Source: Utricularia gibba | Lineage: Eukaryota > Plantae > Magnoliophyta | DNA length: 64,000 nt | NCBI GenBank assembly: GCA_002189035.1 | Contig: NEEC01000002.1 | Coordinates: forward strand, 4,402,001-4,466,000 | Reading direction: 5' to 3' | Part shown: positions 11,629 to 54,319 of the stretch, one piece after another | How positions within the stretch are numbered: the stretch's first letter is position 1 | Layout: each line of letters begins with the position of its first letter | Program-made: the position numbers and the translations under genes | Notes under the pieces: model-generated | What the model was told of the DNA's origin: nothing | Databases searched by the model: none | What the model saw: only the letters and a program-made list of their open reading frames with translations

Positions 11629-11640
11629 TTCAGCCCCTCT
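11629..11640 (-). other. Polypurine tract of element B (AGAGGGGCTGAA)
   Basis: Abuts the 3' LTR; identical 12-mer at 29093-29104 in element C. Confidence 0.85.
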
Positions 11641-19320: not shown

Positions 19321-19374
19321 GATCAACACTTAGTGGCTGACTCTCGTGGATTTCTCGAGTGGGGTTGTAGATCT

Positions 19375-19392
19375 GCCCCACGGTGGGCGCCA
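19375..19392 (-). other. Primer-binding site of element B, complementary to the 3' 18 nt of tRNA-Lys(CUU)
   Basis: TGGCGCCCACCGTGGGGC, 3 nt inside the 5' LTR; matches the recalled plant tRNA-Lys 3' end GCCCCACGGTGGGCGCCA. Confidence 0.88.
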
Positions 19393-19395
19393 AAA

Positions 19396-19915
19396 TGTTG
19401 GGGGTAAAATCGAAATCCGATGGAAGGCCGATTTTAGGGTGATAAGTGCAATCGGGAATGTCACACTTAGTTACGTTTTTCACGGTTGATTCCATTCAAA
19501 TGAAAGTAAGCGAAGATTTTTACGTGGAAACCGCCGGAAGACGGAAAAACCACGAAGCTATCGGAGCTCGCCAGAAAAGATTTCCACTAGACGGAGGTGG
19601 CGAAGAAGAGGATACAAGTTGAATAATCCTTCAAGTTCAAAAAAAATAATCATCATCCTTTCTCCGTAATGGTTTCTCCTATTTATGGAAGAGCCCAATC
19701 TGGCCGAATCCTGATGTCTGCCAATATCGGTTGCTTTATGCACCTGCTATACGATCTCGCTTTTCAGATTTCGGCCGCCTACTATGCCGTGATTCGGCCA
19801 CTTTTCAGACTGTGCCTCTGATTTGCATCATTCGGTCGACTGACGCGATCCTATCAGAACATCTCTTGGCAGCTTTTCAGAGGTCGGCTGATTATACCTG
19901 ATTTGTACCCCCTCA
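19396..19915 (-). repeat. 5' LTR of element B
   Basis: Direct repeat of 11108-11628, adjacent to the PBS. Confidence 0.95.
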
Positions 19916-27660: not shown

Positions 27661-30600
27661 AGGCCCATTAGAGTCAGTTGGGAGTGTTTACGATTGGCCT
27701 TCAGCGGGCCCAGTCCCAAAATTACATGTCTGCCAATTTCCTTGGGCAATCTTAAATTGCATCAAAAAAAATTTCAAGTTTTATCATTTTGATAAAATTG
27801 GTCTCTACTTTTTAATATAAATTACGTAATTCGTCTTCGTTGGCAAAATCAACTCCCAAACTTTAATGCATACGTATTAATAATCTTCAAAATTTTACAT
27901 TTTATGCATTTTTTTATCCTTCACTGTTTCAACACTGAGCACAATTAATCTCTAATTAGAAATGGGCAAAAGATCCAACCCCTTGGATACCCACCCCTAC
28001 CCAACTTGTGAAGGTCAGATTTATAGTGGACAAGGGATGAATATGGATTTTATAATCTTAAACCCATGTTGGGATGGTGCACGGATGGATTTTTAGAAAA
28101 AAATATTAATACTCGCTCCACATACCTAGCCTATAAACCCATTTCTTAAAAAAATAATTGTAACAAATTTACGTGTTTTGAAAATAACATGACATAGATA
28201 TGATGAGCAACTCTATTAAAAATTTATATATACTTCTATTACCATATTTTTTATTCCACTTTTATTTCTAGTTTTCTTTTCTCTAAAAAAGAGATGATGC
28301 TCTTCAATAGGAGCTAAGTTGGAGGGAGATTCTGATGCAAATAGGTAGGCTGAGGACTACGAAGATTGGAGAACTTGGTTATCACAAACAATTTTTATGA
28401 TGTAGAATTTCAAATCAAAGAAAGTAAGATTTCTTTTCACAATCTCTTCTTATGTTCATTGCATCACTTTTATTTTCAGTGGTATGATTTCAGATGAAGA
28501 AAATTCTATCATTAGTAGCAAAATTTGGTACTCCTTCTATTATGGGTGAAAATTGGTTGAGTGGGTTGAGCCGATTTTCTGGTTTTGGATGTGATCGGAA
28601 AGGCAACTTTTTTGTATACTTCTTTTCGTGATCTGTTCGGTTTGACCGGGTGAATTGAATGTAGTCAAAGATTTTTTTACGCCAAAACCACCGTAAGACG
28701 TAAAAACCATGTAACTGTCGGAGCTCATCGGAGAAGACTTCTACTAGACAGAGGTGGTCGAGAAAACGATACAAGTTGAGGAGTTTTTTTTTTTTTTGGT
28801 TCCCCCCCCCCTCCTCTTTTCTTTAGAACTTCTCCTATTTATAAAAGAGGCTGCTCTAGCCGATTCCTTGCTTCTACAGGTGTCGGTTACTTTTGCGCCT
28901 GCTATGCAATCTCGCTTTTCAGATATCGGCTGCTTGTTCTGCCGTAATTCGGCTGCTTTTCAGACTGTGTCATATGGCCACCGCTGTCAAATTTCTGATA
29001 CATAGCAAGCTATCGACTGGCGTTATCCTATCAGGGCTTCTTTTGGCAGCCTTTCTCAAACCAATCATCCCCAGCTGATTTACACCCCATCATTCAGCCC
29101 CTCTGATTTATCGATATTGACCTTTCCAAGGCAAGTCGATGGATCAAAAGTACCGCTATACCGATTTCTGGCGTGCTGCTTTTCATGGGTTAGTCTCTAG
29201 CTGATTTAGACCGATTTCTATGCCACGCGTCGTCTCCTAAGCGTGCGACGTTTTTTCCCGCTCATTCTGGGCACCTCAAGCGCCGTGCCGTTTCGCCTCC
29301 CGAGTACCTTTTCTATAAGTATGTGCTCCTCTCGTCACTTCACCCCCTTTTGCTTCCTCTGATCACTCGCGGGATCTTAGCACTATTTGTGCCGCGTCAC
29401 TCTCGTCTGTTGCCTGCGCCGCCGTACTTCCACCCCGAACTGTGAATTTTCAGGTACCAGTCAGCTCTTCACACTCTCTGCTGGGCTTTTTTGAGGGTTT
29501 GGTTGGATTCTGATAACACCATTTTTATTGTGTTTTTATATATGTTTTTAAGTGTGTTTTGTAGGGTTAAATGTTGCTTAGGGTGCTAAAATGTCTTTTT
29601 TTGTGCATTTAGTCTGTTAAAATGTGTTTATTGTGAAAATAGGCTTAATTGTTGCCAATTGAGCCGAAAATTCTAATATTTTATCTAGTTTGTGTTTTAA
29701 GTCTTACCAGGGTAAGAGCTAGTACTGCAGCAACGTACTTTCCGCGTTGAGAAGTCAAAAAGGGATAGAAAAGATGTGCAAAAGCCACTTTCCACCGAAA
29801 GTAGCCGCCCTTTTGAAGAGATAAGATATGGAGCAGAGATCTCCCTTCTACAAGCATGAGGAAAAGATCAAGCATGAGCATCAAAAGAGAAAAGGAAGGG
29901 AGAGAGAAAAAAAGGAGTACACTATGCACGCAGAGTGTGCAGACAGCGAACAGGAGCAAGCGGGAGCGAGGAGAACGTTGTTTCTCCGGCAAAAATCTCC
30001 GGCGACCTCCAAATCTGCGTGTCTACACCACCTTTTCGGCTAGAACTTCGATTTCCAGCAGATCTCCAGCCCACAGAAGCATACTACAACTTTTATTTAC
30101 GCATTTTCTGCTCTTCCATTTCTGCGAGAACCTGTTATTGTTACTATTTTCATTTCTAAGCTTTCTGCTGCTTTTCGAAACCTTGCTGTGAACGGGAAAC
30201 TCGTTGTACAACTTGCTTTAGTTTATAAACATGTCTCTGTTTAAGCTTTTCACATTTGATTTTAAGCTTGATATGCCATTTGCTGTTCCTGCGCACGCAT
30301 ACTCTGTTTTCGCACACTCTTACTCTGTTTTTAAGCTTTCTTAAGCTGGGTTTAAGCCTATGGGCCCTGTTGAGTGACACAAGAGGCTGAACCAGGTGTA
30401 AAACTCATTCAAATTACTTTTATTTTATGTTTTCTGCATCTTTATATTAATTTCAGTCCCTTTTCACCCTTGCAACCCATTCCTTTCAGTCATTGTTATT
30501 TTAGATCTTACCCGCATTAGAACTAAATCCCAGAGAACGCCCTGTTTCAAGTAGTTGTGTTGAACTTCATAAAATTGCAACCATTCCCTGTGGATTCGAC

Positions 30601-30728
30601 CCTTGCTTGCCACGCTACATTAATTCTTGTGATTTGTGTAGTAGAATAGCTCGGTTTATAAATTTCTGTTGACGCTTTGAATGTACTAAACCACGACATT
30701 TAGCAACCCATTCCAAGGTTCATCAAAA

Positions 30729-30746
30729 TGGCGCCGTTGCCGGGGA
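30729..30746 (+). other. Primer-binding site of element D, complementary to the 3' 18 nt of tRNA-Asp(GUC)
   Basis: TGGCGCCGTTGCCGGGGA, 3 nt after the 5' LTR; the typical Athila PBS. Confidence 0.92.
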
Positions 30747-30790
30747 ATGGTGTCTGTTTATTTTTTTGTGGTTAATGCATTTACGTTCCC

Positions 30791-33700
30791 TTGCAGGTCC
30801 ACTTGAACCCCTTGGATTTTGAGGTCGAGAGGACTAAAAGAATAATGAGAAAGAAGCACAAACAAAGTCAGCAAGAGGCTAATTTGAGGGCCATAGAGAT
30901 GGCTGACAACCACTCAAATAATCAGCAGCTTGTGGATATTTTGGAGAAGACCATTGGGGAGTATGAGTCACCAGATCATACATATCGAGGGCATTGTATC
31001 ACCTTTCCTACAACAGCAATTAATCTGGAGTTGAGACCAGGGACCCTTGCCCTGTTTCCTAAGTATTATGGGAATAAGAATGAGGACCCTCACATGCATA
31101 TTGATGATTGTATTGCTGTTGGAGCTGTGCTGCGACCCAAGGACGTGACTGAGGATGATTTACTACTCAAAGTCTTCCAATTTACTCTTGAAGGATATGC
31201 CAAGACGTGGTTCAATACACTTGAACCTGGAAGTATTAGAAGCTGGATAGAAATGAAGAAAGCATTTTTAAATCAATTTTTTCCCACCTCTAGAGCAGAC
31301 GAAATTTGGGGCAAAATTGAAAATATTTTTCAGGATTATGATGAACCTTTACATGAGTATTGGAACAGGTTCACAACCCTTCTTTTGAGCTGCCCACATC
31401 ATGTATATGACAAATTGAAGCAAGTGAAGTGTTTTTTGAAGGGTTTGACTGCTGCTCAAAGAGATAAGTTGGATTCTACTGCACATGGTAATATGAGAAC
31501 TCTTACCCCATCTGAAGGCTGGGAGAAAATTAAAGAAATGGTTGGTCATTCCAGGCATTCTCAGTCTCGATCTCGAGCCCAGTGACAAGTGCATGAAATG
31601 GGGATATTGAGAGAGGATGAAGCAGCAAGAAATGACAATGATATTGCTGAATTGAAGGATATGGTGAAAGGTTTATTTCTTGTTCATGCAAAATCCATGC
31701 CTTGTGAAGTCTGTGGAAGTCTGGGACATATGCCTGATCATTGCTCCATGAAAGGAAATCTAGAAGAACCACTTGAAGGAGTGAATGCAATGGGGTACAT
31801 GAATAATAGAGCGGATTATTTCAAGCCCAAAAATGACCAGCGATTTGAGCCTATGAGGAATCATCCCAATTTTAGTTGGAGAAGCACCAACGTGGAGAAT
31901 CCACAACATTTGGGATTCACTCAACCGCAGTAGCAACCAGCTCCACCAATTTCGTTTCAACAAGGACAAAGTGTTCAGTAGGGGAATAGGTATCAAAGTA
32001 GGCCTTATCAACCCCCACATCAAAGAGTCGACCAGCCAAGCACTTTAGGTATTAAACCATCTCCTTCCACTGAAGAAATGATGAAGATGATGCTGGAAAA
32101 CATGGCCAGACATGATGCTGAACAAGCAAAAAGGGATGCTGAACAGGCCAAAAGGGATGTTGAATCTGAGAAGATGATGAAGAGTATTGAGAGGCAAATT
32201 GGCCAACTTGCTATAGAGCTCACTGAACTGAAAGGAAACTCACGGAAATTACCATCTCAGCCCAATGCTAATCCGAAGGCCAACATTTCTGCTATAGAAC
32301 TTTGTGGGGGAAAGCAGCTCCCTAACTGAAAAGCCCCTACAAGCCACACCAAAGCAGCAGAAGGGATTCAAATTAATTCTGAGGATAAGGTGCAGCATGA
32401 AAAGGCAGCAGGGGAACTTGTTTTTGAGATCAAGAAGACGCCTCCTTTTCCTGGAAGATTGCAAGCTTGAGCAAGGCAAGAAGAAAAGGACTCTATCATT
32501 TCAGCCTTGGACTCTGCAATGATCACCATGAAGGCTATAGATTATTTAAGGCAAGTGCCGAAAGGGATGAAAGTATTGAAGGACTTGTGTAGTTCGAAGA
32601 GGAAAAGCAAGGATGAGGACGTGATCAAAGTCAGTGCTCAAGTCTCCGCATACCTGACCCAACCGATGCCAGAAAAATGTTCAGACCTTGGAACATTTTT
32701 TGTTCCTATCCAGGTAGGAACTAAATTCATCAGCAGGGCAATGGCAGATCAAGGTGCTTCAATCAACATGATGCCTTATGAAGTTTATTTGCACTGGATT
32801 TGGATCCCCTCAGGCCAACCAACTTGAAATTACAACTTGCAACCAGATCCGTGGCCATTCCGGAGGGTATTGCTGAAGATGTTCTTGTTAGAATTTCTAA
32901 CATCTGTTATCCTTGCGATTTTGTTGTTGTTAAAAGCCCTCCAGCTAGGGTGAATGATAATACTTTAATTCTGGGACACCCTTTCTTAGCTATTGCAAAT
33001 GCTCATATTGATTGTAGGAAAGGAGCCATCACTATTGGCTATGCTGATGATATCTCCATCTTTAAGACCAATGAAGTTGAAAAATTCCCTGATGATTTTG
33101 CACCTGTGACTGGAGTTGATGTCGTTGATGAATTAGTAGAGGAAGTTTTTGATGAAGAGCAGCATGATATTCTTGAATTGTTTAGACAAGATGCTGAGCT
33201 CGAAGAGGAGGAAGCTGAGTATGTAATTCTTGAATGTTTCATTGAAGATAAAGACTTGGTGAAGCTTGGAGAGGTGACTAGTGTTGCATCACCAGAATTG
33301 AAACCCTTGCCTTCACATCTCAAGTATGCATTTATTGGTGACAATTCAAAGCTAGTGATTATTAGTGCTGATCTTTCTTGTGAAGAAGAGACGAAGTTGA
33401 TGGACGTTCTCAAGGCTAACAGCAAGGCTATTGGCTGGACATTAGATGATATAACCGGAATTAGCTCTTTTGTCACCATGCATAGGATTTATCTTGAAGA
33501 CGGAGCAAAACCGGTTAGACAACCACAGAGAAGGCTCAATCCTACCCTCATGGAGGTAGTGAAGAAGGAAATACAGAAGCTGTTGAAAGCTGGAGTGATT
33601 TATTCAATTTCTGATAGCACATGGGTAAGTCCTATCCACGTAGTCTCTAAAAAGACAGGAATTACCGTTGTCGAAGATGCTGATGGAAAGAAGGTGGCGA

Positions 33701-36206
33701 CGTGAGTTCAGAATGGCTGGAGGGTATGTATTGACTACAGGAAGCTAAATGAAGTCACAAGGAAGGATCACTACCCTCTACCCTTCGTGGACCAAATGTT
33801 GGACAGGTTAAGTGGTAAAAGTTTTTATTGCTTTCTTGATGGGTACTCAGGGTATAACCAGGTTGTTGTGGCACCGGATGATCAAGAAAAGACGACTTTT
33901 ACCTGTCCCTTTGGCACCTATGCGTACAAGAAGATGCCATTTGGTCTCTGCAACGCCCAGCGACTTTTGAAAGGTGTGTCACCAGCATTTTTTCGAATTA
34001 TATTGATGATTTCATTGAAGTATTCATGGACGACTTTACTTTGCATGGAACTAGTTTTGATGATTTTTTGAATCATTTAGAACTTGTTTTGAAACGTTGT
34101 GTTGAGAAAGATTTAGTTTTGAACTCTGAAAAATGCCATTTCATAGTATGCCAAGGAATTGGACTTGGGCATGTTGTTTCAGCAGCAGGTCTTACGGTAG
34201 ATCCTGCTAAGGTAAGTACTATTTTTGGTTTACCATATCCATGTGATGAAAGAGAAGTTCGTGCATTTTTAGGCCATGCCGGATTTTACAGGAGGTTTGT
34301 TAAAGGTTTTTCTCAAATTGCTCGACCACTAACCAATCTCTTGTAGAAGGATGCTGAGTTTATTTTTTCAGATGAATGTAAGCATGCTTTTGAAACTCTC
34401 AAGGCAGGCGTGACATCAGCTCCTATCATACAAGCGCCCAATTGGAGTGAACCATTCCATGTGATAACTGATGCATCCAACTATGTAGTAGGAGCTGTGT
34501 TGGGCCAGAAACTTGATGGAAAAGACACTGTCACCAGCTATGCCTCCAAAACCTTAGATAATGCTCAAGCAAATTACACTACAATCGAGAAGGAGATGCT
34601 AGCTGTTGTATTTGTCTTGGAAAAGTTCAGAAGTTAATAGTTGGGTAACAAAGTGATTGTCCATATAGACCATGCCGCCATCAAACACCTCATGTCCAAG
34701 AAGGAGACCAAGCCGAGGCTTATGAGGTGGGTCTTATTGCTGCAAGAGTTCAATGTGGAAATCATGGATAAGCCTGGGAAGCTCAATGAAGTTGCAGATC
34801 ATCTTAGCAGAATCGAGCAACCCATGGATGGTGTTCCAATTGTTGAAGAATTTCCAGATGAACAACTCTGTGCAATTAAGGCTGATGCAGGTAAGACTAG
34901 TGAACCATGGTATGCTGACATAGCCAATTATTTGTGCACTGGAGAGATGGCTTTGGACTTAAAGAGTTATGAGAAGGTGAAGTCGAAGAGTGAGAGTAAG
35001 CACTATTTCTGGGATGACCCCTATCTGTGGAAAAATTGTGCTAATGGTGTTGTGCGACGCTGCTTGACTGAAGATGATATTCAGCAAGTGTTGGCATTCT
35101 GTCATGCATCTCCTTGTGGAGTGCACCATGGTCCTAACCGTACTGCCAAGAAGGTGCTGGATTGTGGTTATTATTGGCCAACAGTTTTCAAAGATGCCAA
35201 GTCTTACTGTAAGAGCTGCGAGAACTGCCAAAGAATAGGGAATATCTCAAATCGGCATGAAATGCCAATGCAGCCAATTGTGGTTCCAGAAGTGTTCGAT
35301 GTGTGGGGAATAGACTTCATGGGGCCCTTTCCTAACTCTGATGGCTATGAGTACATTCTGGTGGCAGTGGACTATGTTTCAAAGTGGACAGAGGCAATTC
35401 CCACCAAGTCACAAGATACTCATTCAGTCATATGTTTTCTGAAGAATAACATCTTTGTGAAGTTAGGAACACCCAAAGCCTTGATCAGTGATCGCAGAAG
35501 CCATTTCTTTAACAAGGCTATAGAGAGATTGCTGAAAATCTATGGAGTCTGGTATAAGCCATCTAATTCTTACCACCCTCAGACCAATGAGCAGGCAGAA
35601 GTTTCTAATCGGGAGATCAAGCAAATTCTGGAAAAGACTGTGACTTCTTCTCGCAAGGACTGGAGCTCCAAGTTGAATGACACCTTGTGGGCAATTCGCA
35701 CAGCCTTCAAAACCCCCATCGGTATGTCTCCTTTTCGTCTTGTATATGGTAAACATTGCCATTTGCCCATTGAATTAGAGCAGAAGGCAAGATGGGCGAT
35801 CCAGTGAGTGAACTTGGAGATTCAAGGCAGTGGTGACTTGAGAAAGCTCCAACTTTCAGAGCTTGATGAACTAAGACATGAGGCCTACATGAGTTCTAAA
35901 ATCTTCAAGGAACGCACGAAGTAGTTCCATGAACGTCAGATCTTGCAAAAGCACTTTGAACCTAGACAAAAGGTATTATTATTTCAGTCTAAACTCAAAC
36001 TTCACCCAGGTAAACTGAAATCTCGTTGGGAAGGACCTTTTGTGATTAAACATGTGAATCCTAATGGTTCCATTGAGTTGTTTGATAGAGACATGCATAG
36101 CTCATTCACTGTGAACGGTCATAGATTGAAAGTGTTCCATGAGCTTATGATTGATGAAGTGGGACACCTTGTGGATGCGGTGGCATTCACTGAAATTCCC
36201 CTCTAA
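30791..36206 (+). pseudogene. gag-pol of Athila element D (decayed)
   Basis: Retrotransposon gag (FTLEGYAKTWF, AFLNQFFP), protease AMADQGASINMMP, RT FLDGYSGYNQ/MDDF, RNase H TDASNYVVGAVLGQ and integrase [10 protein letters not shown]. Multiple stops and frameshifts. Confidence 0.92.
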
Positions 36207-36569
36207 GTGATTCTGCACTTAAGTCTTACCCTAAGAATTATTCTAGGGTCCTCGATGGTGAGGTTACCAGTATTTTCTCCTTTTATTTTCGTTATGCATC
36301 TTTATTTTATTTATGCACTTTCAGTTATGCATTTTGCCTTTTGTACTGTTGCAATATGTTATTTTGTTGTTTCTTTCTGCCCCACTATTAGTTTCTAGTG
36401 CAATGGGCAATCTCTTGTATAGTTGCAACTCTTTCTTTATTTTTAGTTACACAAGCCCAGTGGGTTTAATTTTAAAAGGGTGGGAAACCCTTTTAAATCC
36501 TTCTTCCCAACAGTTACTCTCCCTCTTTTGCACCCCTTGCCTCTTTCTCAGAACCGTTGCAACTCTTCC

Positions 36570-38683
36570 ATGGCGAACCTCCCATCCTCAAACTCAACCA
36601 CCGTGCCACTGGCCACCCTTGACCACCCATCTGTTCCGACCGCCTCCATAACCACCAACCCAACCTCTGCCATGCCACGCACTATTCAGTTTTTTCCCCA
36701 ATCCGTTACCGCACCCTCTACCGCGAGCCCTAGGCCCTCTTCCGACGAAATGCTGCTCGCCACGCATGTAGAAGCTGACATTCTGCAGTTGCTGCTGAGT
36801 TTACGCGTAGCCCATCTTCATACCCTTGCCTCTAGCGCCTCATCACCCATTCCTATGCCACAACCATCCCCTGTCGCTGCTACACCCTCACCGCGCTAGC
36901 GTTCCCCACTACCGCGTGCTTCTCCGATCCCGAATCTGGTGGGTGTGCTTGATTTTTCCCTTACTTTGGCTACTCCTCGCCCTTCGACTACTGCCCCGTC
37001 CACCCACCACCGCACCCCTTCTCCACCTCTGGTGGTTACTATTTCTGCTACTCCTCCGCCACCGGAGCGCTTCACTCTTGGACCCCCGCTTACACCCGAC
37101 TCTCTTTACACTGATTTTCTTGACGACCAGGAAATTTCAGACCCCCCGGAGGGAGGTATTCCCAAGAGTGCGACCCTTGCTATCACTTTTGCTCCGGATG
37201 CTGTCCCAAATGCCTCCAAGAGCACTGCTCCAGCAAGGAAGACCACACAGTGGGAGGCAAAAAATGCTACCAGCAAGAAGAAGGGTATGGCTGAAGCAAG
37301 CAAGAAAAAGGAACCGGAAAAGGAACCTACCCGAGCACCCTCTGAGCCAACAAGAGAGGCAGCAGCTGCCAATAAAAAGAAGGACACGGCAACAAGCAAG
37401 AAGCCTCCAGCGAGGATGAGCCCTGAATCAACACCAGCACCCATCGAGACAATAAGAGAGGAAGATGCCACTATCTGAAGGGAACGACCAGAGAGAGCCA
37501 CCAAAGAACAAAAGAAACGGCCACGAGAGGAGAAGGAGGCTGGAAAAACACAGAAGGGAGGAAAAGCAAAACAACGCAAGGATGAGAAAGGTAAACAGAA
37601 AATGACTGAACCCCCTGTTGGCTCTACCATTTTTGCAGATAGGGACATCACTATGGTGGAATTGGAGGACTGCATTTTTACAGAGCACCTACGATTCAGC
37701 AGCAGAGCCCACAAGGAAAAGCTGGATACAATTTTTGGAGCAGGGCCAGAACCGGTGCGCTATCTAGACACTAAAACACTTCAGCACCTTGGCATTGAGC
37801 AAGAGGTAAACGCACGGTTAGCAGGAACACCGTTTCTTCATATTTTTCAGAACAAGCTGTCTGCCTGCGCTGAATTGTGTTATGAATTTTTCACGACATT
37901 TGTGTATGATGTGCCTGAAACTGTTTTTGCTCCTGGCATCATTCGGTTTAGATTGACTGGAATAGAGCCTTAGGATTTGTTTCTGAAAATGATTTGAACT
38001 CCATTGCTTTTCAGACTTCCATGTTTGATTTTCCTGGTGTTGAATATGTTGATGAACATGAAGTTTATGAGCAATTGACTGGGCATTATGAGGTTATCTT
38101 TAAGCAAAAAGGGACTAAGGCTAGTTTGGTAGTAGACCCTGTGTGGAGGATTATTCATGTGCTCCTTTCTACTTCCTTTTTCCAGCATCAACGCGCCTTC
38201 AATTCCTTGTTTAAAAATGAGACTTTTATTTTGTGGAGTTTAATGATGAAAAGGCCATTGAATGTTGGTGCTTTACTTGCTGATTTGATGAAGAAAGAAG
38301 TAGGGAATAGAACGCGTGTTTTGACTTTGCGGTTGTGAAACTGGGTCTCTTATTTGGCTTTAAAAGAATTTGGTCCTGATGCCTTAGAAAATGCCAACTT
38401 GCACATTGGACCCCCTCATCTCCCCATTAACTTATCTTTTCTCACAAATATTGGAATGATTCGACTTGCCAAAGGCAAGATCGTATTTTTATTAAGCATA
38501 GGTGAAGGAAACGTTGTGGAGCAGCCCTTGCCCAATGCTCAGGAAGCTTCTGGATCTGTTGGGGGGGGAAACACCTGTGAAAAGCGGAAACTGCTGTTGC
38601 TTGAGGGAAATTCGAGAGTTGAGAGGCACTATAGGCACCCTGAAGCTGTATTTAGAGACTGCTTGATTTACAGGCGGGCGTAA
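36570..38683 (+). pseudogene. Athila env-like/extra ORF (decayed)
   Basis: Follows integrase. Pyrimidine tract plus CTCAG acceptor at 36551 before ATG 36570. P/S/T-rich then K/E-rich region, then VRYLDTKTLQHLGIEQEV...ELCYEFFTTF...IRFRL resembling the recalled ATHILA ORF (PF03078). Confidence 0.75.
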
Positions 38684-40034
38684 GTCCTATTGTGCCTCCT
38701 AAACCTTGACTAGACTTTTTACCTTGTTTGTTTTGTATATATGTGTTCTTTGTTTTATGTGATTTAGTTTTCCTACTTGTCGTTGCACGTGTTTTGTAGT
38801 TGTGTGTCTGTCTTTTGGTGCCTTGAGTACTGCTGAGCATGTATAGGAATTTCGGATCATGCTTGAAATGTAAGATGCCTACCCCTTCGCTTCTGTGAGG
38901 ACTCGGCCTTTTTAGCTCTTACCTGCTTAAAACTTATATGAGGGTAGCCAGATTTTGTAGAAAAGTGCACGCATGCGGCCTCTGTTTTGCTCCATCTGCA
39001 CTAGGACTTACTTGTAAATTGCTTGTACGTGGCTTGCTAGTATGCGGATTTGTGGGTTGCATTGAGTTAGATACATAGACTGTGGCTGATGCACATAAAA
39101 GATTTTTGATGATAAAAGGCAAGCTTCAATCTAAAAAGTCGAGCTATATAAAAACAAAAAAAAAAGAGAAGAGAAAAGCAGCGAGGTACAAAAGGCAGGC
39201 ACACCAAAAAAGCCGTGCTGTAAAAAAAAATTCTTGTAGGAAATAAGAGCTTGAGGCTTAGACACTATGAACTCATTACTTTCCCTAAACATTTTTGTGG
39301 CCTGGCCAACCACACAAGGAGAAATAAGGATGAGCAAAGGGAGGGGAATGTGACTAACTCATAGTGGAAGAGTTCTCAAGTTTCTATGCTTTTGTTTAGT
39401 ACCTCCATGAGCATGACTTTCATTTTCAGCCACACTTTTGTATGTGTCTTGCAAGGTACAACTCATACATGTCACTGTTAGTATGCTACCGCATTTTAGG
39501 ATCAAGTTTGTACACGTGCAGATGTAATTTTTGAACACTTGAAGCATGCGAGTAACTCCTACTATCTATGCTTGAGTGAAACTGTTATTGCCCGCACTTG
39601 CTACCTCTCCTCTCCACTCCTTGCATGGATAGCATGACCAGAAACCTTTTCTTTGTCTCAGCAGACTCAACCTTAGATTTTCTGTTTTATTTTCTGTTTT
39701 ATTTTCTATTTTAGACTTGAGGACAAGTCTAGAGTCGTTGTAGGATAGTGTGATAACACCGTTTTTATTGTGTTTTTATATATGTTTTTAAGTGCGTTTT
39801 GTAGGGTTAAATGTTGCTTAGGGTGCTAAAATGTCTTCTTTTGTGCATTTAGTCTATTAAAATATGTTTATTATGAAAATAGGCTCAATTGGCAACAATT
39901 GAGCCGAAAATTCTAATATTTCATCTACTCTGTGTTTTAAGTCTTACCAGGGTAAGAGCTAGTACTGCAGCAACGTACTTTATGTGTTGAGAAGTCAAAA
40001 AGGGATAGAAAAGCTGTGCAAAAGTCTTACCAGG

Positions 40035-40640
40035 TTGGTCTGCCTGAAGTCTCCCCGAACGTCAATGATCACCCGCTGAGGAGGATCAAATAACAGAACT
40101 CTCCGGGGCTCAGGATCCGACTCCCTCTCCCCGATCGGAAAGAGAAAAGAAAAGATATTGCCTTCTTCCAATCTCAACGGAGCGCCGGCTCGCAGCACAG
40201 GGCTCCTTTCAGCGGGTGCTTCCACATCGACTACCCCGAATGAAGCACAAGGGGCCCTACTCCGATAGAGGTAGAAGACGATCCCACGCTCCCTCCGTCT
40301 TTGGTACCGGCCGAATTAAAGAGAATGTTGGACGAAGCTGTGCCGAGTCTTCGGGACGTTCAGCCGGAAATAATACTTAAGGGGATTTGGCAGGTACTGA
40401 TCTTTTGCCTTCTCAGTGTCATTCATAACAGATTTCCAACTTAGCAATTTTTCGTCAGGCCTTGACTTTTGGATGGGAGCTGGCCAAGAAAGTCGGGTCT
40501 CAACTCGAGGAGGTTGTTCGATTTCAGATGCAGATGGAGGCTCAAGATGCCAAAATGAAGTTCATGGCTGAGGAAGGGCAAGCTGGAGGCGAGGCTTCGA
40601 GGGCATGTTGGACCCTCAGTCGGTCCTCGCTATGATCTCC
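40035..40640 (+). pseudogene. Remnant of the antisense extra ORF of element C, with a 65-nt intron at 40394-40458
   Basis: DVQPEIILKGIWQ|ALTFGWELAKKVG aligns with DVQPDTVLEGIWQ|ALTFGWGVVREIG of element B. Phase-0 GT..AG intron. Confidence 0.75.
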
Positions 40641-43600
40641 CTCCTCCTCCTGAAGTTTAATTTCTTTATTTCTTCTTTTGCTGAACTAATGTTCTTGTCC
40701 CCAATTCTGGGGTTTTTGGATACTTTGAGATCCTGGTTTGGGATTCTTCTTTCTGATCTACTTATCTCTTGCTTTTATCGCTTTCGCCTTTACTAGTATT
40801 TATGAGTTGCATGATTCGCCAATCACCCGATTGAGCTTCTCGCTCAAGTACTATCTTATAATCGCCCGATTTCCGATAAGGACATGCACTGGAACCCCTT
40901 GGGCTTGAGTTATTTCCCCACTCCGAATGCGTCTTCAGCTGGTCGGATCTATGATTTCAAGGCATATCCGGATCAGCTTCGGGCACGTTTACTGTTCCAA
41001 TATTTGGTAGCATGCTCTTTATTTAGAGCTTTTTTTGGTGCTTTATACGAACGTCATTTAGGAAGGACTGGTACCCAAGTTGTGTTAGGGTTGGCCCTTG
41101 TTATTAGTGTGTGGGTTTTGGGAGGTCTTATATTTCGGGGGTGTCCTGATTCAGTTTGTTGTGCCCAGGGCGGGTTTAAGCCTGGGGGGGCTTACGCAGA
41201 CGGTTGCAGGGGATACTGATACCCGAGCTAACCCTTATCACTGGAGCCTAGGCTTTGGAGATCACATGTTTAGGAGAGAGCCTCGAGTTGGTTTGCTGTG
41301 CTCATAACGAGGCTTAGATTTAGAGGGTTCGCCAAGGCTTTTGTGTCCCGGGGGATGGGTGTCTTTTTGCCAACCCTTTGGTTGGGCTTTTTGACTTTGG
41401 ATTGCCTTAATATTTCCTTACGTGAGCTGAACCGGGAAGTAGACCAAGACCCCTCATGGGTTGAGTGACTTCCCCAATCCGATTGGGCTCTCTTCTGGCT
41501 GAATTCCCATTGTTTTGAACATGGGTAGATTTGCTTCGGGTGCTCTTGCCGTCTCGAGATTCGGCAGTAAGTTTTGAACTTAAGGGCTTTTTCGGGGCTT
41601 ACGCAGACGGTTTTAGGAAACCGGTGACCGAGTGGTACCAGGGCTTATCCTTATCATTGAGGCCTGGGTTTCGAAGATTTTACATTTCGGGGGATCCTGA
41701 GTTGATTTGTTGTGCTTGATAGGGGGTGCTGATTTAGAAGGTTTGCTTGTGCTTACATGACTTGGCCAAAGCTTATGATCTTGCTAACCCATCTCTGCTT
41801 TGGAGGAATTTATAACCATCCATGTGTTTTGACGAAGAAAATTCCAAATCTAGAAAGGACTTGTGATAGGGATGGTATTGAGCCGATTATGCATAGAATT
41901 TTCTTACATGTGTTGCGTTCTAAATATCTCGAGAATTTTCCCACATGTCATTGTGTTTGGATGCTTCGGAGCACCAATCTTCTTCCGAGAATTCCGTTGG
42001 GGATACAAACTTGTCGTAACTTTTTTTTTCGTTTTTCACGGATGAGCCCCTAGTCAGCTATAAATAGTCTGTCGTTTTTCTTCCATCAATTCCAACTCCA
42101 GTTTTTTATAAGTTAGCGTTCTCCCTATTTGTTTCCAGTTTGTTGATGACTTGGTTACGCCTCTTTCTTCGCAGCATCTCCTCATCGGTTTCGGATTCGG
42201 TTTCCATGTCCGGGGGATATTCCGGAATCAGGGGTTGCTTTTCCACTCGTCGTGCGGTCTTGGGTGTCTCCTCCTGTGTGTTGGAGTTCAGACCTGAAGT
42301 CGGAGAGAATTTCCGTTAGAAGGGCCTTCAGTTGCTCCTTGCTGATGATCATAAGACCGGGGTTTTGCTTCCCGGCACTTCCTTCGTGGATAGAATTCAT
42401 GGCCATCTTATTTTATGCCATGGTTGATGTTTGTTGAGCGGCTTCTGTGGATTTCTCGAGTGGGACAATAGATCGGCCCCACGGTGGGCGCCAAAAATGT
42501 TATGGGTGAAAATTGGTTGAGTGGGTCGGGCCGATTTTCCGGTTATGGATGTGATCGGAAAGACAACTTTTTTGTATACTTCTTTCCGTGATTTGTTCGG
42601 TTTGACTGGGTGAAATGAATGCATGCAGAGATTTTTTTACGTGGAAACCATCGTAAGACGGAAAAACCACGAAGCTGTCGAAGCTCGCTGGAGAAGACTT
42701 CTACTAGACGGAGGTGGTCGAGAAAACGATACAAGTTGTGGAGTTTTTTTTTTTGGTTCCCCCCCCCCCCCCCTTTTCTTCAGAACTTCTCCTATTTATA
42801 GAAGGGGCCGCTCTAGCCGATTCCTCACTTCTGCAGGTGTCAGTTACTTTTGCGCTTGCTATACGATCTCGCTTTTCAGATATCGGCCGCCTGTTCTGCC
42901 ATAATTCAGCTGCTTTTCAGACTGTATCATACGGCCACCGTTGTCGAATTTCTGACACATATCGGCCTGTCGACTGGCGTTATCCTGTCAAGGCTTCTTT
43001 TGGCAGCCTTTCACAAACTGATCATCCTCAGCCGATTTAGACCCCATCACCTTCAACAAATAATCAAGAGATAGAGTAGAATGATGAATATGATTATTCA
43101 AAATTGATAAATGAGGTTTGAAAACATTTTAAAAAGGCACAAATTGATGAAAAGTAGAAACCAATATGTAATTAATGCTCATCATCAATTATTTTTGAAA
43201 CAAAGAGTAGAACGTTTCTTAAAAGTATAAAAAGCATGGCGCTCAATCATATATTTTTTAGATATAAAAACGTTCAAACATTTCTTATGCTTGAAAGTGT
43301 CATTTCCTATAAAAAATTTTTTTCTATATATTGGAAGAAGGAGACCTAAAATATAAGCTTAGTTTGTTGGAAGAAGATTAGTTACTTTCAAAGATTTTGG
43401 AAGTTGAGAATCTTTCATGAGGCTATAAAATTATTTTAAGGTATTTATATCTTGTTAACATTATTTTTTTAATTTTATATAGTTATGATTTTTAGATTTA
43501 ACATTTAATAAATTTTTGTAGGGGCATGTTATCCTACTGCAAATTTATTATTTTCCTAACAATTTGTAATCAAATTGACCTTAAACAAATGAATTAATGA

Positions 43601-44440
43601 TCTAGATGAATTGAGAAGAGATATGACAAGTAAGATGTTTGATAAATTTATAAAATATTGGAATATGATTCATGATATTATGAGAGTTGCTTATTTGTTA
43701 AATCTGAGATATAAATCATATTTTTTAAATTATGGCTGGGAGAGTAGTAGTCATGTTGAGAAAATTGTGAACATTTGCTTGATAATGTTGTTTAAGTATC
43801 AAGGACAAAAGAAAAGTTTTTCATCATTTGTAGGATCTAGTTTTAGTATTGGTTCATATATGCAATTTTATGAACTTTATTAGTTCTAAAAAGAGCAACG
43901 AGTCCAACTTTTAGTCAAAGTTTGATTACTACATAAATGATGATGTCTTGTGACTATCTAAAAATTTTGCTAAAATGTATTGATGGAATACAAATGAAGT
44001 AAAATATTCAACTCTACAAAAAATTGCAAGAGATATATTAGATATCTATGTTACCTTAGAGACCTATAAATTAGTTTTTAGCACATGAGTTGGATCATTA
44101 ATCCACATCAGAGTAAATTGTATTTATCTCTAGTTGTGACTTTCGTTTGTTTAAGGAATTGAACATCTAATAAAAAATAATAAACTATTTATTATCAATG
44201 TTTATTTCTTATTTTATTTATTATTAAATAATTATAATTGCATTAATTCTATTTGTCACATTTATGTAAGATGGAGAGGGGATGGTAAAATCCAAAGAAA
44301 TATATAATTTTTTTGCATTAACTCCAAACTTTTATGAATGGATTATTTTTATCCAATCTTTTGGTATGTTAATTGTTAACTACTGTATGATTTTGAAAAG
44401 GGACAAGGAGGTTGTAAAACTTTTGACTCTTAAGAGTATG

Positions 44441-45015
44441 TGATAAACAAAAAAATGTTGCAATATTGTTAATTTGTAAATTTTTCTATCAAATAAAATT
44501 TATAAATCTAATTCACATCAAACCATATGAAAATATGAGTATAGTGGACTAGGGTCGAACACAAGGAGTTAAGTGCTTGCTATGCGAAAGTTAATGCATG
44601 CAATCAATGTCATGTTAATATATTTGGTCTTAACTAGGACTAAGACAGAGTTACGATAAAATACAGTAAGGAAAAGTAACAAACTTTTGAACTCGGTTGT
44701 TTCTAAGATGAAATGGGTGACGCCTTGGGACTCTTAAATAATGTATGCTTATCACTAAACACGTTCACATAAACCATAAGTCAAATAACTAATAAACAAA
44801 GTCTAGATCTACCCGGACTCTTGCATTCCTCCTAATCTTTGGTCTACCTCTAATCAAGGTTGTTAAGATGAGTTTCATTATTTTCCCCTCCTGGATCTAT
44901 TCTGGTTTGTTAAGAAAGTGGCATGACTTATGGTTAATAAAGTCTAAAGATTGATTATTACATTTCTCTCCTTTTTAACCCAAGGCACCTTTTTAAGTAC
45001 TTAGCCACTCATAAT
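44441..45015 (-). mobile_element. Truncated Athila-type LTR (3' part only)
   Basis: Aligns with 46827-47400. Intact family terminus at 44441; breaks off at the foldback. Confidence 0.8.
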
Positions 45016-45210
45016 AAGAGAAAAAAAAACGTTTTCATAACATATTCTAAACAATATTCTGGTATCAAAGTTAAACAATAGCAATTTGTTGGGATCCAAA
45101 TGAGAGTACTTAAAAATTAATGCACCTTTTTTAATCCAACATTTGCTATTGTTTAACTTTGATACCAGAATATTGTTTAGAATATGTTATGAAAACGTTT
45201 TTTTTCTCTT
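45016..45210. repeat. Near-perfect inverted repeat (arms ~68-78 bp, ~40-nt loop), followed by short tandem duplications to ~45280
   Basis: aagagaaaaaaaaacgttttcataacatattctaaacaatattctggtatcaaagttaaacaatagcaa and its reverse complement at ~45143-45210, differing only in A-run length. Confidence 0.9.
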
Positions 45211-46826
45211 TTAATAAAGTACTATTCTCTTTTAATAAAGTAATTTTTAATAAAGTACTATTCTCTTTTTAAGTACTATTGATGGATATACATAATGGGC
45301 AGATTACCACAAGTGTTGGGTTTAGATTTGGATTTAAAAAAAGGTGGGGCGGGTATAGATTTGATAAAACCCACTCCACGCGCATTCATGTGTCTAATTA
45401 TTAAAATTAGACACGATTGGTTGTGGATTAATTTTTTTAAAATTTTAAGTAATTTGCGGATTAATTCTAAAGGATTTTTTAAATATATTTTTAAAAAAAA
45501 TTAATTTTTTTAAATTTTTAAATAATTATTTCAAACATTAAGGATTATTAATGTCAAATTGGTGAATGCTAGAATGCTAGAACCGATTTTTCCTATGTAT
45601 TGAAAAAGTGAATACCAATTTTATCATTATTTTAAAATAAAAAAGGTCATTGTTATAATTTTTACAAATATTAGGAGCCCCCCCATAAGTAGTGAATAGG
45701 GGATGGCGGCTCTTAATCACAAATTCCAACCCCATTACCTGATCCTTATCCTCCACGTGTACTCATGCTGCTTCACTCTGAGTCTGATGGGGAATCAAAC
45801 CCAAGAGTTGATCATGGTATCGCATTCACGATTCAGGATTATATATAAAAGTGGTCATTCTCTCAATTCTCAATAATCATAATTAGAAAAATAACCACCT
45901 TTTTTTATTTTTTTAAACACAAAACAGGTAAACACATTATTTCGTGCAATAAATAAACAGGACTTTTTTAAATATTTTTTTAAATCAGTTCAGAGTTAGG
46001 GTTCATTAAATATCATAAATTACGATAATTGGAAACTATTTTCAATTACTTACAGAAAAAACTAAATAATAGAAAGTGAAGTTAATGCAGATGATGCTGC
46101 ATTTATTCAAATTATTGATTATATTCTACATTCATCTTCTCAAACTTATACACATTATTATAATGAGGAAATGGGTGGCACCTATCAAGTTATAGACCTC
46201 GCTGAAGAGTACTCACCATTCTAGTGGTCCCTACGTGAGGACTTGCCAAATGCCAAGGGGAGGAGCAAGTTGGACTAGTAAACAGAACGGGACCTCGAAG
46301 AGAGACAGGATCCTAACTACGTGAGGATGTTGCATGTTGGACTTGGGTCTACTCTCAACCTATAGAGGCCTACCACGTGGCGTAGATGAAGGGGGGGGGG
46401 GGGGATTTCAGTTGCCCAGCCCCCTAATCATCAGCTCATCTCTGCGTATCTGAGTATTGCACCACCAACATATGGGATGAGATGTCCGTCCCTTGTTTAG
46501 GGAGGGAGATGCACAAAAATGATATCATATGGATGCTTTAATGACTTGTTTTGTTATTATCACTCAATAATTGATGAGTATACGCATCCCAAGACAAAAA
46601 TAAAATTTGAAATGAGGTGAATCCTTACGAAGCTTAGGTTTAATAAGGTGGTACATGGTATTTCTCTTACTTTGAAGAAGAGGGTGGAAACATTAAGAAA
46701 CTACCTCGACCCATGTGATTTGGGCAAGACACAGGCATATCGGATCTGCATGTGTGCTAAGTATATACTCTTGGATGATACCTTATTAACGATACACGTT
46801 GAGAGAGAATGAAAGGGAAATCAGAC

Positions 46827-47986
46827 TGATAAACGAAAAATTACGCAATGTCGTTAAATTGCAAATTTCTACTATCAAATAAATTTATAACCTAATATAC
46901 CTTCAAGCATAAAACAATTATGAGCATAGTGATTAAGGTCGAACACGAGGAGCTAGGTGCTTGTTATGTGAAGGTCAATGCAAGGAATCAATGTCACGTT
47001 GGTAAAATTGGTCTTAGATAGGACTAAAGCATAACTAAAATGAAATACAGTAAAGAAAAGTAATAAGTTCTGAAGCTCGGTTGTTTTTGGAAGAGAATGG
47101 GTGATGCCTTGAGACTCCTAGGGGATGTATGTTCATCACTAAACAAACTCATACAAACCACAAATCATACAAATAACTCACAAGATCTAGGTCTACCCGA
47201 ATTCTTGTTTTTTCCCCTAATCTTTGGTCTACCTCTAAGTAGGGTTGTTAAGTTGGGTTTTACTACTTCCCCCTCCTGGATCTATCCTGATTTGTTAAGG
47301 AAGTGGTGTGACTCATGGGTGTTTAGATCTAAAGATTGATTAACATGTTTCTCCCCTTTTTACCCCAAGACACCCCCTTAAGTATTTAGCCACTCATGCT
47401 TAAGGTAAACGAAAGTGGAAAAGAAAACATCACCCACAATGTGCTCATTTCATAGTCAAATACCAGAAAGCAAACAAGCAAGTAATGTGAAGTGTCAACA
47501 AAAACTAAAAAACGTCACTAGCTACTCTTAGCTAGGAGTAATATTCTTCGAAGACAGAAAATAATCTCCAACTTCACCTTCGTTCCTGTTTGTCTTCCTT
47601 CTTCTTCCTCCCCAGAAAATGTGTTCATGAGTCTCCAAGGGGAGATCTGCTTCTCTCTTCACCTTTCCTCCCTTTTTGTCAAAAATCTTCCTTTTTCACC
47701 TCCTTGGACTTTGTGTGTACTCTTCTTCAGACTTCTGTCACCTTTCCTGCCACCACACTGTTCATACTCAGCTCCTTGGGATTTGTGTTGTGACCCATGG
47801 TGCATTGCTCGAAAGGAACTATTAGAAGGTTGGGACTAAATCGCACATTTAGTCCCAACTAAGACTAAAAGTGCACTCCTACGGTACTTATGTGCAAAAA
47901 TATAGAAATAGGCAATTAAGCTTAATTTTTGTAACATAAAATGAGTAAATTCAATGCATTGAGCCACTCAAAAATATGTGTAGTCA
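46827..47986 (-). mobile_element. Solo LTR (Athila-type), 1160 bp
   Basis: Reverse complement of the 2498-3645 family. Perfect 5-bp TSD CAGAC (46822-46826, 47987-47991). Confidence 0.9.
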
Positions 47987-49260
47987 CAGACCAATGACAC
48001 ACGTATGAGGAAATCATGGTGTAGAATACTTCCTAGCTCCCCAAAAAGAAGCCATGCCCAAATGTAGTCAAAGACTGGGATATGGAAATTTTGTACGTTC
48101 CGTCGGACTACATCTCATAACACCAAGATAGGATATTTTGCTGATTGGAATGGATAAAATGAGTTTAATTTACTTGAGTTTAAATAAATGTGATGTAATA
48201 TAATCAATTTTTTAGGTACCGTTTAGTTATTGAGATAGAAACCCATGTAATCTCATCAACTAAACACATCCCAAAGTATGTGCTTTGTCCTCCATGAACT
48301 TAGAATAGGTGCTAGAATAAGATTATTGATGGCTCCCGAGGTGAGGAGGGCAACCCGTGGAGGCAGAGGAAGGAACGAAGTCAAATGACCTCTGATAAGT
48401 ACTTGCATCTCCTCTCGGGTTATATATGTGGTAAATGAAAATTTCAAGATCTTTATAAAATATAAATTTTTTTATTAAATAAATTTATAAAACTATAATT
48501 CAAATATGATGTAAATCAAACAAAAGATGTATCGTGAATTTCGGAATCGAATATAAGGAAGTGGTGCTTATGGTGTTAAAGTTCATGCATTTTGATTGTC
48601 ACAATCAAATTTTAAATCTTAGTTAAAACTAATATGGTGTAAACAATAATATATAACATTACAGAAGACAATATAACAACCACTAAATATTAACTTTAAT
48701 AGAGTTAAAACATGTGTGCATCAAAAGTGTGATCACTTGACCTTTGATCTAAAAACTCTAAAGTAATAACTTGATATAGTCCAGGTCTACATAAACTAAC
48801 CTTTATGATTTTTTTGTTTTAATTTTCCTAAACTTTTTAAAACCACCTCACATTTAGGTTTATCATTCATAAGATAAATAAAAATTACATTCACTCGATC
48901 CTATTTATATCTAACTTAAAAAATTATCTATGAAAATACATCTCACTTCTTTAATTTACTTCTAATGTTGGGTTTCCGAAGTTAAGTATACTAGTCTTTT
49001 CCTCTCTTGCATCTTTATTGGTTTGTTAGGAAAAGTCATATAAATACGTGCAACTTTTCAAGTCTTAACCAATATTACACCTGATAAAACTAATCAAAAC
49101 AATTTCATAAAACAAAGACAACAATATGTTCATAAAGCTTTGAGATAAAATAATGAATAGAATCTTGATATTATTAAACAATTGAGTCCTATGCCACGAC
49201 ACTAATTCTAGCTTTGACTAGTAATGCATGGAAATTGAATTGAGTTCCTCAACTGAAAGA

Positions 49261-50120: not shown

Positions 50121-50641
50121 AAGAAAATTTCTCCATGTTCTTCATTGGGTTTTTACATTCTCACCTCTCCTAAGATGCCTAGTCTGATTGTTTGTTGTTC
50201 GAATTCCCCCTGTATATCCCTTGAAACTGTCTATTTCTCTCCCGTTCCTTGGTCTTCATGTATATTATGCCACTTTTCTTTCATCTTTTTGGTTGCTACT
50301 TTGATTTTATGATATTCAATCATCTTTTCTGTGTTTTGAGGTGTTGCGACTTTTAATTGAGAGCAAGTTATCTCCTTATCATATCAATTCATTTTTCCAT
50401 TTCATTCATCTTGTATTACGTGCTATTGATTATTTTTGCTAGATTTTCTCTAAAATACTGCTATTAATACTTAGGAAAAGATTAGAAAACATAAGATAAA
50501 CTAAATAATTAATTTAGTCCACATTTATGTATTAAAATACACAAAATACTAAAATTACCAAAATACAAGTTAAAATACCTAATTTCACTACTAAACATGT
50601 CCATTTTGTGTTCTAAACTATTAAGAAAATGTGTATTATCA
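50100..50641 (-). mobile_element. 5' fragment of an Athila-type LTR
   Basis: Reverse complement starts tgataatacacatttt, resembles 20193 onward, and carries the same GTGGACTAAAT dyad about 120 nt in. Confidence 0.5.
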
Positions 50642-53226: not shown

Positions 53227-54319
53227 ATGATGTGTCGTTTGCATGCGATTCTACTTGCCGTGGGGGTCGTGGCCTCGTGTCTACGGGCTGCAGACTCAGA
53301 AGAGGTGGTGCTGAAGCTCCCCAGCCAGCGGATTCCGGTAAAAGTCACAAAATATACAGAGTACGCGGCGGAGCAAGCTAATGCTAAGGCACAGGAGTGG
53401 TCTTATGGCTTCTTGGGGGCTGTTAAAGACCCTTTTCTCACCTGGCTCAGAGGACGTGGACGTGGTCATGGTCATGGTCATGGTGGTCTGTGGATAACAC
53501 CCAAAATCCTGCTGCTATTTTCTTCCTCCTTAATTGCTTCCCTAATCTAACATCAATACAATACTAAGGAGACCCCTTACTTGCGTTTCGTGAAATACTA
53601 TGGAATGAACCTTTGATTTTTGTCACAGAAAACAATATTTTAAACATGGCAGGGGGTGTTCCAAATGCTGTTTTCACCGTCTACAACAACTGTCCGTACA
53701 CAATTTGGCCGGCGACTCTCACCAGCAGCGGAGGTCAAATCTCGTCCACTGGATTCGAACTTCCTTCGTGGCACGTCGCAACACTCGATGCTCCCCCCAA
53801 TGGTCCGGAAGAATATGGGCGAGGTTTCAGTGCTCTTGGGGCGGCAGCGGCTTCAGATGCAACAGTGGGGACTGTGGCTCTGGCCAGATTCCATGCAACG
53901 GTCACGGAGGCGCTCCACCAGCGACACTCGCCGAGTTCACCCTCAGCGGAAGCGGCAACCAGGACTTCTTCGACGTCAGCCTCGTCGACGGTTTCAACCT
54001 GCCCGTAAGAATAGATCCGGACGGCGGTTGCGCGTCCGCAAGCTGCCCTGTCGATATAAACGCTCAGTGTCCGAGTGAGTTAAGCATATGGGATAACAAC
54101 GGCGGAGTGATCGGGTGCAAGAGTGCGTGCGTGGCATTTAATCAGCCGCAGTACTGCTGCTCGCCGCCGAACAACACGCCGGATACTTGTCCGGCGACGG
54201 ATTATTCAGAGCACTTCAAGCGTCTGTGCCCTCAGGCTTACAGCTACGCTTTTGATGATCCATCCAGCACCTTCACGTGCGCTGCTGGAAGAAGCTACAC
54301 CATCACCTGGTGCCCATGA
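53227..54319 (+). CDS. TLP: Thaumatin-like (PR-5) protein, long 16-Cys type, with signal peptide and N-terminal extension. Probable intron 53486 to 53628 or 53652; 1-bp frameshift in the C-run at 53793-53798.
   Basis: AVFTVYNNCPYTIWP, PATLAEFTL, DFFDVSLVDGFNLP and CPQAYSYAFDD..STFTC. All 16 Cys and the R/E/D/D/D acidic-cleft residues present after adding one C. Exon-1 junction inferred. Confidence 0.9.

Follow-up and report, generated by a model that had tools for sequence, protein, structure and literature searches.

How is the plus strand started in an LTR retrotransposon that carries, at the position of its polypurine tract (PPT), a copy of the 5' end of its own primer tRNA? LTR retrotransposons and retroviruses are taken to share an element-encoded, purine-rich plus-strand primer, and minus-strand priming is known to vary, with whole-tRNA, half-tRNA and self-primer forms. 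The question arises from an Athila-type element in Utricularia gibba, found in a window (the whole stretch of DNA analysed) of 64,000 nucleotides, positions 4,402,001 to 4,466,000 of contig NEEC01000002.1. The original prediction was that one tRNA, tRNA-Asp, might serve this element as two primers.

All features of the element lie on the plus strand. Its 5' LTR (29511 to 30725; 1215 bp, TGATAA...TCATCA) is followed, after an AAA spacer of 3 nt, by the PBS TGGCGCCGTTGCCGGGGA (30729 to 30746), which is complementary, as had been predicted, to the 3' 18 nt of tRNA-Asp. Next come a broken gag (30776 to 31582; PF03732, E value of 1.8e-21) and a pol region with RT, RNase H and integrase (33709 to 35804) that is in pieces, interrupted by stops and frameshifts, and recognised by Pfam profile matches. 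Athila elements often carry an extra, env-like ORF in the 3' region, and here the ORF list gives broken extra reading frames without a Pfam match from 36447 to approximately 38700. A conserved pre-PPT hairpin, TAGACTTG-AGGA-CAAGTCTA (39712 to 39731; 8-bp stem, AGGA loop, z of -2.5), is separated by a 2-nt linker, GA, from the 17-mer GTCGTTGTAGGATAGTG (39734 to 39750), a sense copy of tRNA-Asp nt 1 to 17 at the PPT position. The 3' LTR begins with TGATAA at 39751 and is a remnant, its first 274 bp (39751 to 40024) being present and the remainder missing; over these 274 bp it is 93% identical to the 5' LTR (K2P 0.069). Read contigs back the LTR start at 39751, with loose ends and unrelated flanks before that base in 4/4 runs (agreement of 0.38 to 0.55). 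From about 40025, past the remnant, the sequence is internal to a host Tat-type element, an older element (window positions 28540 to 43049, apparently minus strand) in which the Athila-type element is nested and whose outer LTRs (28540 to 29092 and 42500 to 43049) are 88% alike.

The Ty3/gypsy features are present: an LTR pair (the 3' member being the 274-bp remnant), a PBS, gag, and then the RT-RH-INT order. No Pfam match to an archaeal RNase H or a chromodomain was obtained at an E value of 0.05 in the three plus-strand frames of 30729 to 39750, read with X at stops, a sequence in which decay could hide one. The integrase is 49 to 57% identical to those of three canonical hairpin-PPT elements and 33% identical to that of the Tat-type element of the window, and a 20-row integrase tree, which has no named Athila reference, is mostly unresolved. 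Judged from sequence, the element fits the Athila clade by its PBS, LTR size and domain content. According to the supplement of a survey, a tRNA-Asp PBS is found in 72% of 1046 Athila elements (PMC6317226), and the letters of the PBS are those of the FIDEL PBS, annotated as Asp tRNA (PMC2844528).

On rereading the sequence, the coordinates first given for the hairpin, the 17-mer, the LTR start and the PBS all held. The predicted 16/17 match of the site to nt 1 to 17 of tRNA-Asp was borne out against published sequences of other plants (N. benthamiana and wild soybean), which may not be those of the host itself. They are the N. benthamiana primer tRNA-Asp_1F, GTCGTTGTAGTATAGTGG (PMC6521008), and wild-soybean small RNAs of 23 to 24 nt that begin with the tRNA-Asp 5' sequence and are listed as novel miRNAs (PMC3519564). 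The same 5' sequence has been catalogued as a plant microRNA, as miR6300 (PMC6636069) and as novel PC-4 (PMC3519564). The sole mismatch in the first family is at position 11 (base 39744), where the tRNA has T and the element G. The 17-mer carries T2, as does the tRNA 5' strand, against C in the PBS, in agreement with the prediction that it is not a PBS duplicate; its nt 1 to 7 pair 7/7 (one G-U, giving T2) with the 3' strand of the acceptor stem as deduced from the PBS. A second PBS at the 17-mer was ruled out, the 4 nt upstream being TAGA and TTGT and not TGGC. A tRNA gene or pseudogene was also rejected: the likeness ends at nt 17, with no cloverleaf beyond the D-loop, ARAGORN reported 0 genes in the window, and there was no Rfam tRNA match at an E value of 1. 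Pairing of the site elsewhere in the element RNA, with G-U allowed, reached runs of 10 to 11 nt at best, in GT-rich stretches, with nothing near the PBS.

The same arrangement occurs a second time in the window, again on the plus strand. At 61747 to 61789, the order of hairpin, 2-nt linker, 17-mer and TGAT is that of the first family: the hairpin AGGACTTG-GGGG-CAAGTCTT (61747 to 61766), counterpart of the first family's hairpin, is followed by a sense copy of tRNA-Asp nt 1 to 17, GTCGTTGTAGCATAGTG (61769 to 61785; 16/17, with C for T at position 11), and by an LTR-like repeat starting with TGATG (61786 to approximately 63160). We call this second family Athila-type from its junction alone, the window holding a short 3' piece and the LTR of the element but neither a coding region nor a PBS. 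The 17-mers of the two families differ only at position 11 (G versus C; T in the tRNA). The hairpin and linker together are 16/22 alike, and the 100 nt on either side are 47% and 53% alike. The 2-nt linker itself differs, and in both families the identity begins at tRNA nt 1 and ends exactly at the TG of the LTR. Decayed LTR-like repeats at 1 to 4550, 44422 to 48650, 50469 to 50641 and 22359 to 22772 are related at 60 to 79% to each other and to the second-family LTR; none of these repeats has a recognisable tRNA-like junction within 4 mismatches.

To see what usually occupies this position, we compared metagenome contigs, scanned with a pattern of the hairpin core and TGAT at a distance of 22 unconstrained bases, from which the tRNA letters were left out. 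The scan gave at least 116 loci, and since it fixes the spacing, that spacing is seen to be common, not to be the sole one. A plant-type set of 59 of the matches listed (GC of at most 0.45, stem of at least 6 bp) shares the hairpin core CTTG-RGGR-CAAG, the other 57 having been dropped as probable chance matches. Among the matches listed, 41 of the 59 plant-type junctions carry at least 4 consecutive G within their final 12 nt, and the 17-mer occupies these same columns, as the original prediction had placed it. None of the 116 matches listed has a tRNA-like junction, and none comes within 6 mismatches of the site; the 46 distinct plant-type spacers among them show 7 to 14 differences of 16, the closest 7/16. 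Eleven of the loci listed have a gag or pol similar to that of the element, but its best protein relatives are only about 57 to 60% identical, so that the sample is without a close relative from another plant. The 0/116 tRNA-like and 41/59 G-run junctions (among the matches listed) thus indicate that the tRNA copy stands where the PPT would be and, within what was sampled, is restricted to this lineage. ARAGORN found no tRNA-Asp gene in 45 + 4 loci and locus L001, and reported one tRNA-Ala there.

Canonical Athila elements (non-chromovirus, OTA; FIDEL and Brassicaceae ATHILA) share much with the element described here. Common to both are the tRNA-Asp PBS, an LTR of >1.2 kb with TGAT...ATCA ends, an AT-rich spacer before the PBS, the gag-RT-RH-INT order without an aRH match, the pre-PPT hairpin, and its 23-nt distance to the LTR. 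They differ at the tract itself, where FIDEL is described with a G-core PPT, ttgggg (PMC2844528), and this element has a sense copy of primer tRNA nt 1 to 17 instead. The ATHILAfinder preprint likewise describes a conserved G-core PPT in Athila, with 97% junction conservation in Brassicaceae. The original prediction had said that there is no purine tract before the 3' LTR, and this stands for the G-run, the longest in the last 12 nt being 2 in the first family and 1 in the second. It does not stand for purines in general: the last 12 nt of the first family still hold 8/12, equal to the mean of 8.0 for canonical junctions among the matches listed, and the 3' end of the second-family site holds 7/12. 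No other G-run lies close to the 3' LTR, and the nearest purine run of at least 11 nt is at 39336. In three metagenome loci (L043, L056 and L091), the hairpin CTTG-AGGA-CAAG stands 23 nt before TGAT and precedes GA-rich purine tracts with no G-run, so that the hairpin may extend beyond Athila; a literature search found no plant paper giving its letters.

Read contigs from four runs, from three studies of the organism, were mapped to 39560 to 39960 at 80% likeness; two of the runs (X1 and X2) may be the source of the window. The contigs mapped numbered 149, 271, 480 and 661, and their summed depth over 39714 to 39755 was several-fold above that of the sequence upstream. To a 60-nt junction, 39, 65, 34 and 2 contigs mapped, with at least 4 different upstream flanks and at least 3 different downstream flanks; contigs of 47 to 51 nt that matched it exactly occurred at high depth. 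Base 39733, just before tRNA nt 1, is strongly polymorphic in 4/4 runs (A to T in 182/425, 320/1206, 2135/3220 and 376/2290 depth units). Among the best-supported 40 of 183 differences, which include 39729 and 39733, none falls inside 39734 to 39750. Contig depth drops at 39744 in 3/3 DNA runs, a weak hint that copies vary at position 11. In run X9, the RNA nature of which is a guess, 2 contigs span the junction, and these were not counted as expression. The original prediction had allowed that the family consensus might show a normal PPT; when this was examined, the tRNA-like site proved to be family-wide and present in the second, diverged family as well. These data support the tRNA copy as a family-level trait common to both families and not the decay of one copy. 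In two diverged families of one plant, then, the Athila PPT has been replaced, as a real and family-level change, by the 5' sequence of the primer tRNA.

What the replacement does is less certain. We propose that in this Athila-type lineage nt 1 to 17 of the element's own primer tRNA-Asp took the place of the G-run PPT and that the 5' part of the tRNA primes the plus strand, a reading of the sequence to which we give even chances. In a fuller version, which we hold to be slightly short of even, one host tRNA would prime both strands, using its 3' end at the PBS and, for the U3 boundary, its 5' arm or a 5' fragment, and the position-11 mismatch would block Argonaute slicing. The tRNA-Asp bound at the PBS would prime the minus strand, and its acceptor stem would be opened, freeing nt 1 to 7. 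After first-strand transfer, RT would copy the site and RNase H, meeting no G-run, would remove the genomic RNA, which would leave 17 nt complementary to the tRNA 5' end exposed on the minus strand. The tethered 5' arm, or a free 5' fragment cut in the D-loop, might then pair with this stretch. RNase H, or D-loop cleavage by the host, would generate a 3'-OH at nt 17 or slightly before it, from which the plus strand would be extended, beginning at the LTR edge. Since the base that follows, the first of the LTR, is T, fragments longer than 17 nt would have no partner for nt 18. The mismatch at position 11 would then be tolerated, or even favoured: Argonaute slices between nt 10 and 11, and we take the mismatch to coincide with the slicing position of a tRNA-Asp 5' fragment. 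A site of tRNA sense leaves the tRNA only minus-strand DNA or antisense RNA as pairing partners.

Several components of this scheme have been described in other settings. That the primer tRNA is joined to the minus strand and has its acceptor stem opened by PBS binding is established for tRNA priming, according to a Ty3 review (PMC5371799). In Arabidopsis, 5' D-loop fragments of nuclear tRNA-Asp(GTC) are reported among those enriched and abundant, and plant 5' tRNA fragments are given as mostly 19 to 20 nt across tRNAs (PMC5389709). Several features of the locus argue for tRNA priming. The boundary of identity lies at tRNA nt 1, with linker and flanks diverged and base 39733 polymorphic; the copied tRNA appears, from the sequence of the PBS, to be the one already bound there; and the G-run is absent, with the first 7 columns held as they are not in most canonical pairs. 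For this last comparison, we used 33 non-redundant G-run junctions with full flanks, giving 528 pairs, of which 480 have flanks less than 60% alike; the pairs are not independent. Among the matches listed, 7/480 diverged pairs share all of the first 7 columns, so the 5' half of the junction is not normally so tightly held.

The strongest competing account, which we consider unlikely although it deserves serious weight, is that a past template switch of RT, to the tethered tRNA 5' arm and back again, installed nt 1 to 17 in place of the PPT, and that the element's own RNA copy now acts in cis as an atypical PPT, its tRNA likeness being historical. The characterised LTR elements in the literature consulted all use an element-encoded plus-strand primer (PMC5371799). 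Several observations favour such a primer or count against tRNA priming. The genomic RNA's own copy matches the minus strand perfectly and is already in place, its 17-nt RNA/DNA hybrid has a predicted stability of 50 to 51 C, and no new chemistry is required. By comparison, tRNA nt 1 to 10 alone would give 27.5 C; the mismatched tRNA hybrid would lie between these values and would gain from tethering. The last 12 nt, with 8/12 purines in the first family, are as purine-rich as canonical tracts, and the second family keeps 7/12. The position-11 mismatch, present in both families, is not favoured by pairing alone. Diverged canonical families can have tight junctions too, as in the ATHILAfinder figure for Brassicaceae and in 7/480 diverged pairs (among the matches listed) that share at least 16 of the last 17 nt; the conservation between our two families is thus unusual, yet within reach of a cis signal, and does not demand tRNA pairing. 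The commonest 5' fragments, at 19 to 20 nt, are longer than the 17-nt match, and only those of at most 17 nt would have a paired end. Finally, a plus-strand start exactly at the LTR edge is assumed by homology. In canonical junctions among the matches listed, 3 to 5 nt separate the G-run from the LTR. The true start may therefore precede the TG by a few nt, and if that gap holds here, a tRNA primer would end near nt 12 to 14. From the outset, a purely cis-acting relic would nevertheless have needed to be a precise primer resistant to RNase H, and this in the absence of the G-run that other plants retain. Its conservation starts exactly at tRNA nt 1, more 5' than in usual canonical junctions, and action in cis gives no reason why the conserved letters should be those of the primer tRNA 5' end from nt 1.

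The tRNA might also pair with the complement of the site without acting as a primer, either as a tether between the two minus-strand ends (for strand transfer or RNase H positioning) or at a non-cleavable site for Argonaute-bound fragments on antisense RNA. The Ty3 review describes tRNA contacts at both genome ends (PMC5371799), and 5' tRNA fragments are reported to load into AGO1 and guide the cutting of Gypsy RNAs, Athila6A among them (PMC5605234); the single mismatch at position 11 in both families, with the depth step at 39744 in 3/3 DNA runs and its weak hint of polymorphism, would suit such a role. A plus-strand primer would still be needed, however, with no other G-run near the LTR, the tRNA sense of the site means that neither the tRNA nor its fragment pairs with genomic RNA through it, and a regulatory site has no need to adjoin the LTR, so that we regard a non-priming role as improbable. 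Far less credible is an RNA polymerase III promoter role, as in Helenus TRIMs, for an A box left over from a tRNA gene or a tRNA-derived SINE. The A box corresponds to tRNA nt 8 to 19, most of which the site presumably covers, and tRNA-derived promoters inside LTRs are on record, but the B box is missing, which disfavours this reading: the best match within 220 nt has 2/7 mismatches in both families. There is, besides, a T4 run at nt 29 to 30, no tRNA gene or Rfam tRNA match in the window, and a position outside the LTR, and Helenus retains a normal PPT (PMC10886601). A Helenus-type TRIM, a short non-coding element with a tRNA promoter, is also rejected as a class for this element, which encodes gag-pol.

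Equally hard to credit is the idea that an ordinary PPT diverged until it happened to resemble tRNA-Asp. By local composition, the chance of the 16 letters at a fixed position is log10 P = -9.4, or -8.2 with any one position free, and under the profile of plant-type spacers P is ~1e-11; moreover, the tRNA that is matched, from nt 1 on, is the element's own primer. Against the 17-mer, the window has 2 sites at 1 mismatch or fewer, none at 2 to 4 and 8 at 5. With a threshold of 3 mismatches, 5/100 shuffled windows gave 2 matches, and both real sites agree at all 16 specified letters. Being related by descent, the two families are not two independent draws, and one canonical spacer among the matches listed falls within 7 mismatches. 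We retain the chance reading only because exact 16-letter matches occur in collections of 600 Gb, one in viral contigs and one in GTDB. The GTDB match (n = 1), which is followed by TGAT, lies inside a bacterial ORF at ~60% GC and was treated as chance; the viral contigs gave 1 match to the 16-mer, 29 to the hairpin pattern and 4 to the PBS, none resembling a plant element.

Priming of the plus strand by the tRNA would have partial parallels elsewhere. In HIV-1, U3 carries a tRNA-Lys3-like sequence, so that the primer tRNA is related to the genome 3' end, but that site pairs with the tRNA on genomic RNA and acts in minus-strand initiation or transfer, and HIV-1 has a PPT. The bipartite PBS of Ty3 similarly relates the primer tRNA to sequence at the genome 3' end; its sites too are described as pairing with the tRNA on genomic RNA in minus-strand initiation and transfer, with the PPT kept (PMC5371799). 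The closest working analogy is the DR1 to DR2 primer translocation of HBV, in which plus-strand synthesis is primed by a short piece from an RNA 5' terminus, annealed to a direct repeat of the minus-strand DNA (PMC11767736). HBV, however, takes this primer from the 5' end of its own RNA, uses a protein to prime the minus strand, and has neither LTRs nor a tRNA. Half-tRNA priming (copia, Ty5, Osser, Bryco and Bianca) also uses a host tRNA 5' piece as primer. In the accounts available, these systems cut the tRNA in the anticodon arm, prime the minus strand and bind a complementary PBS, whereas the site here is of tRNA sense and lies where the plus strand begins. Helenus TRIMs, the nearest published case and a promoter case, have a tRNA-derived piece fixed in an LTR element, with A and B boxes inside the LTR and PBS and PPT retained, and the available part of the paper reports that its authors found no priming role (PMC10886601). 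As far as their available sections go, a survey gives three minus-strand primer types and no plus-strand alternative (PMC6317226), and an Arabidopsis VLP study gives PPT and central PPT priming only (PMC7197481). A tRNA 5' copy at the PPT was not described in our full-text literature search, whose coverage leaves out most subscription journals, so that absence is not proven.

A many-copy lineage without the G-run and with the primer tRNA 5' end in its place would represent either a new priming mode, for which the chance is roughly even, or a natural tRNA capture that rebuilt a core replication signal. If tRNA priming is true, retrotransposon replication would be linked to 5' tRNA fragments, which are abundant in plants. 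Annotation tools that rely on the PPT would probably score such elements wrongly. Position 11 (G or C in the element, U in the tRNA) is the base that would distinguish cis from trans priming.

Other features of the window are also of note. A Tat-type element at 11107 to 19915, with LTRs 93% alike, has its integrase on the minus strand (15455 to 14466) and its RT and RNase H on the plus strand (16139 to 17536), opposed domains that reflect either an internal inversion or a nested insertion. Pieces of an aromatic amino acid lyase (PAL-like) gene lie in two frames at 6282 to 8787 on the minus strand, and a thaumatin-family gene lies at 53609 to 54319 on the plus strand. A perfect inverted repeat of 63 bp with a 58-nt loop (45012 to 45216) has a weak Rfam MIR859 match, far below the gathering score. 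At 55753 to 56484 there is an inverted-repeat element of ~730 bp, MITE- or foldback-like, with 62-bp units in both arms.
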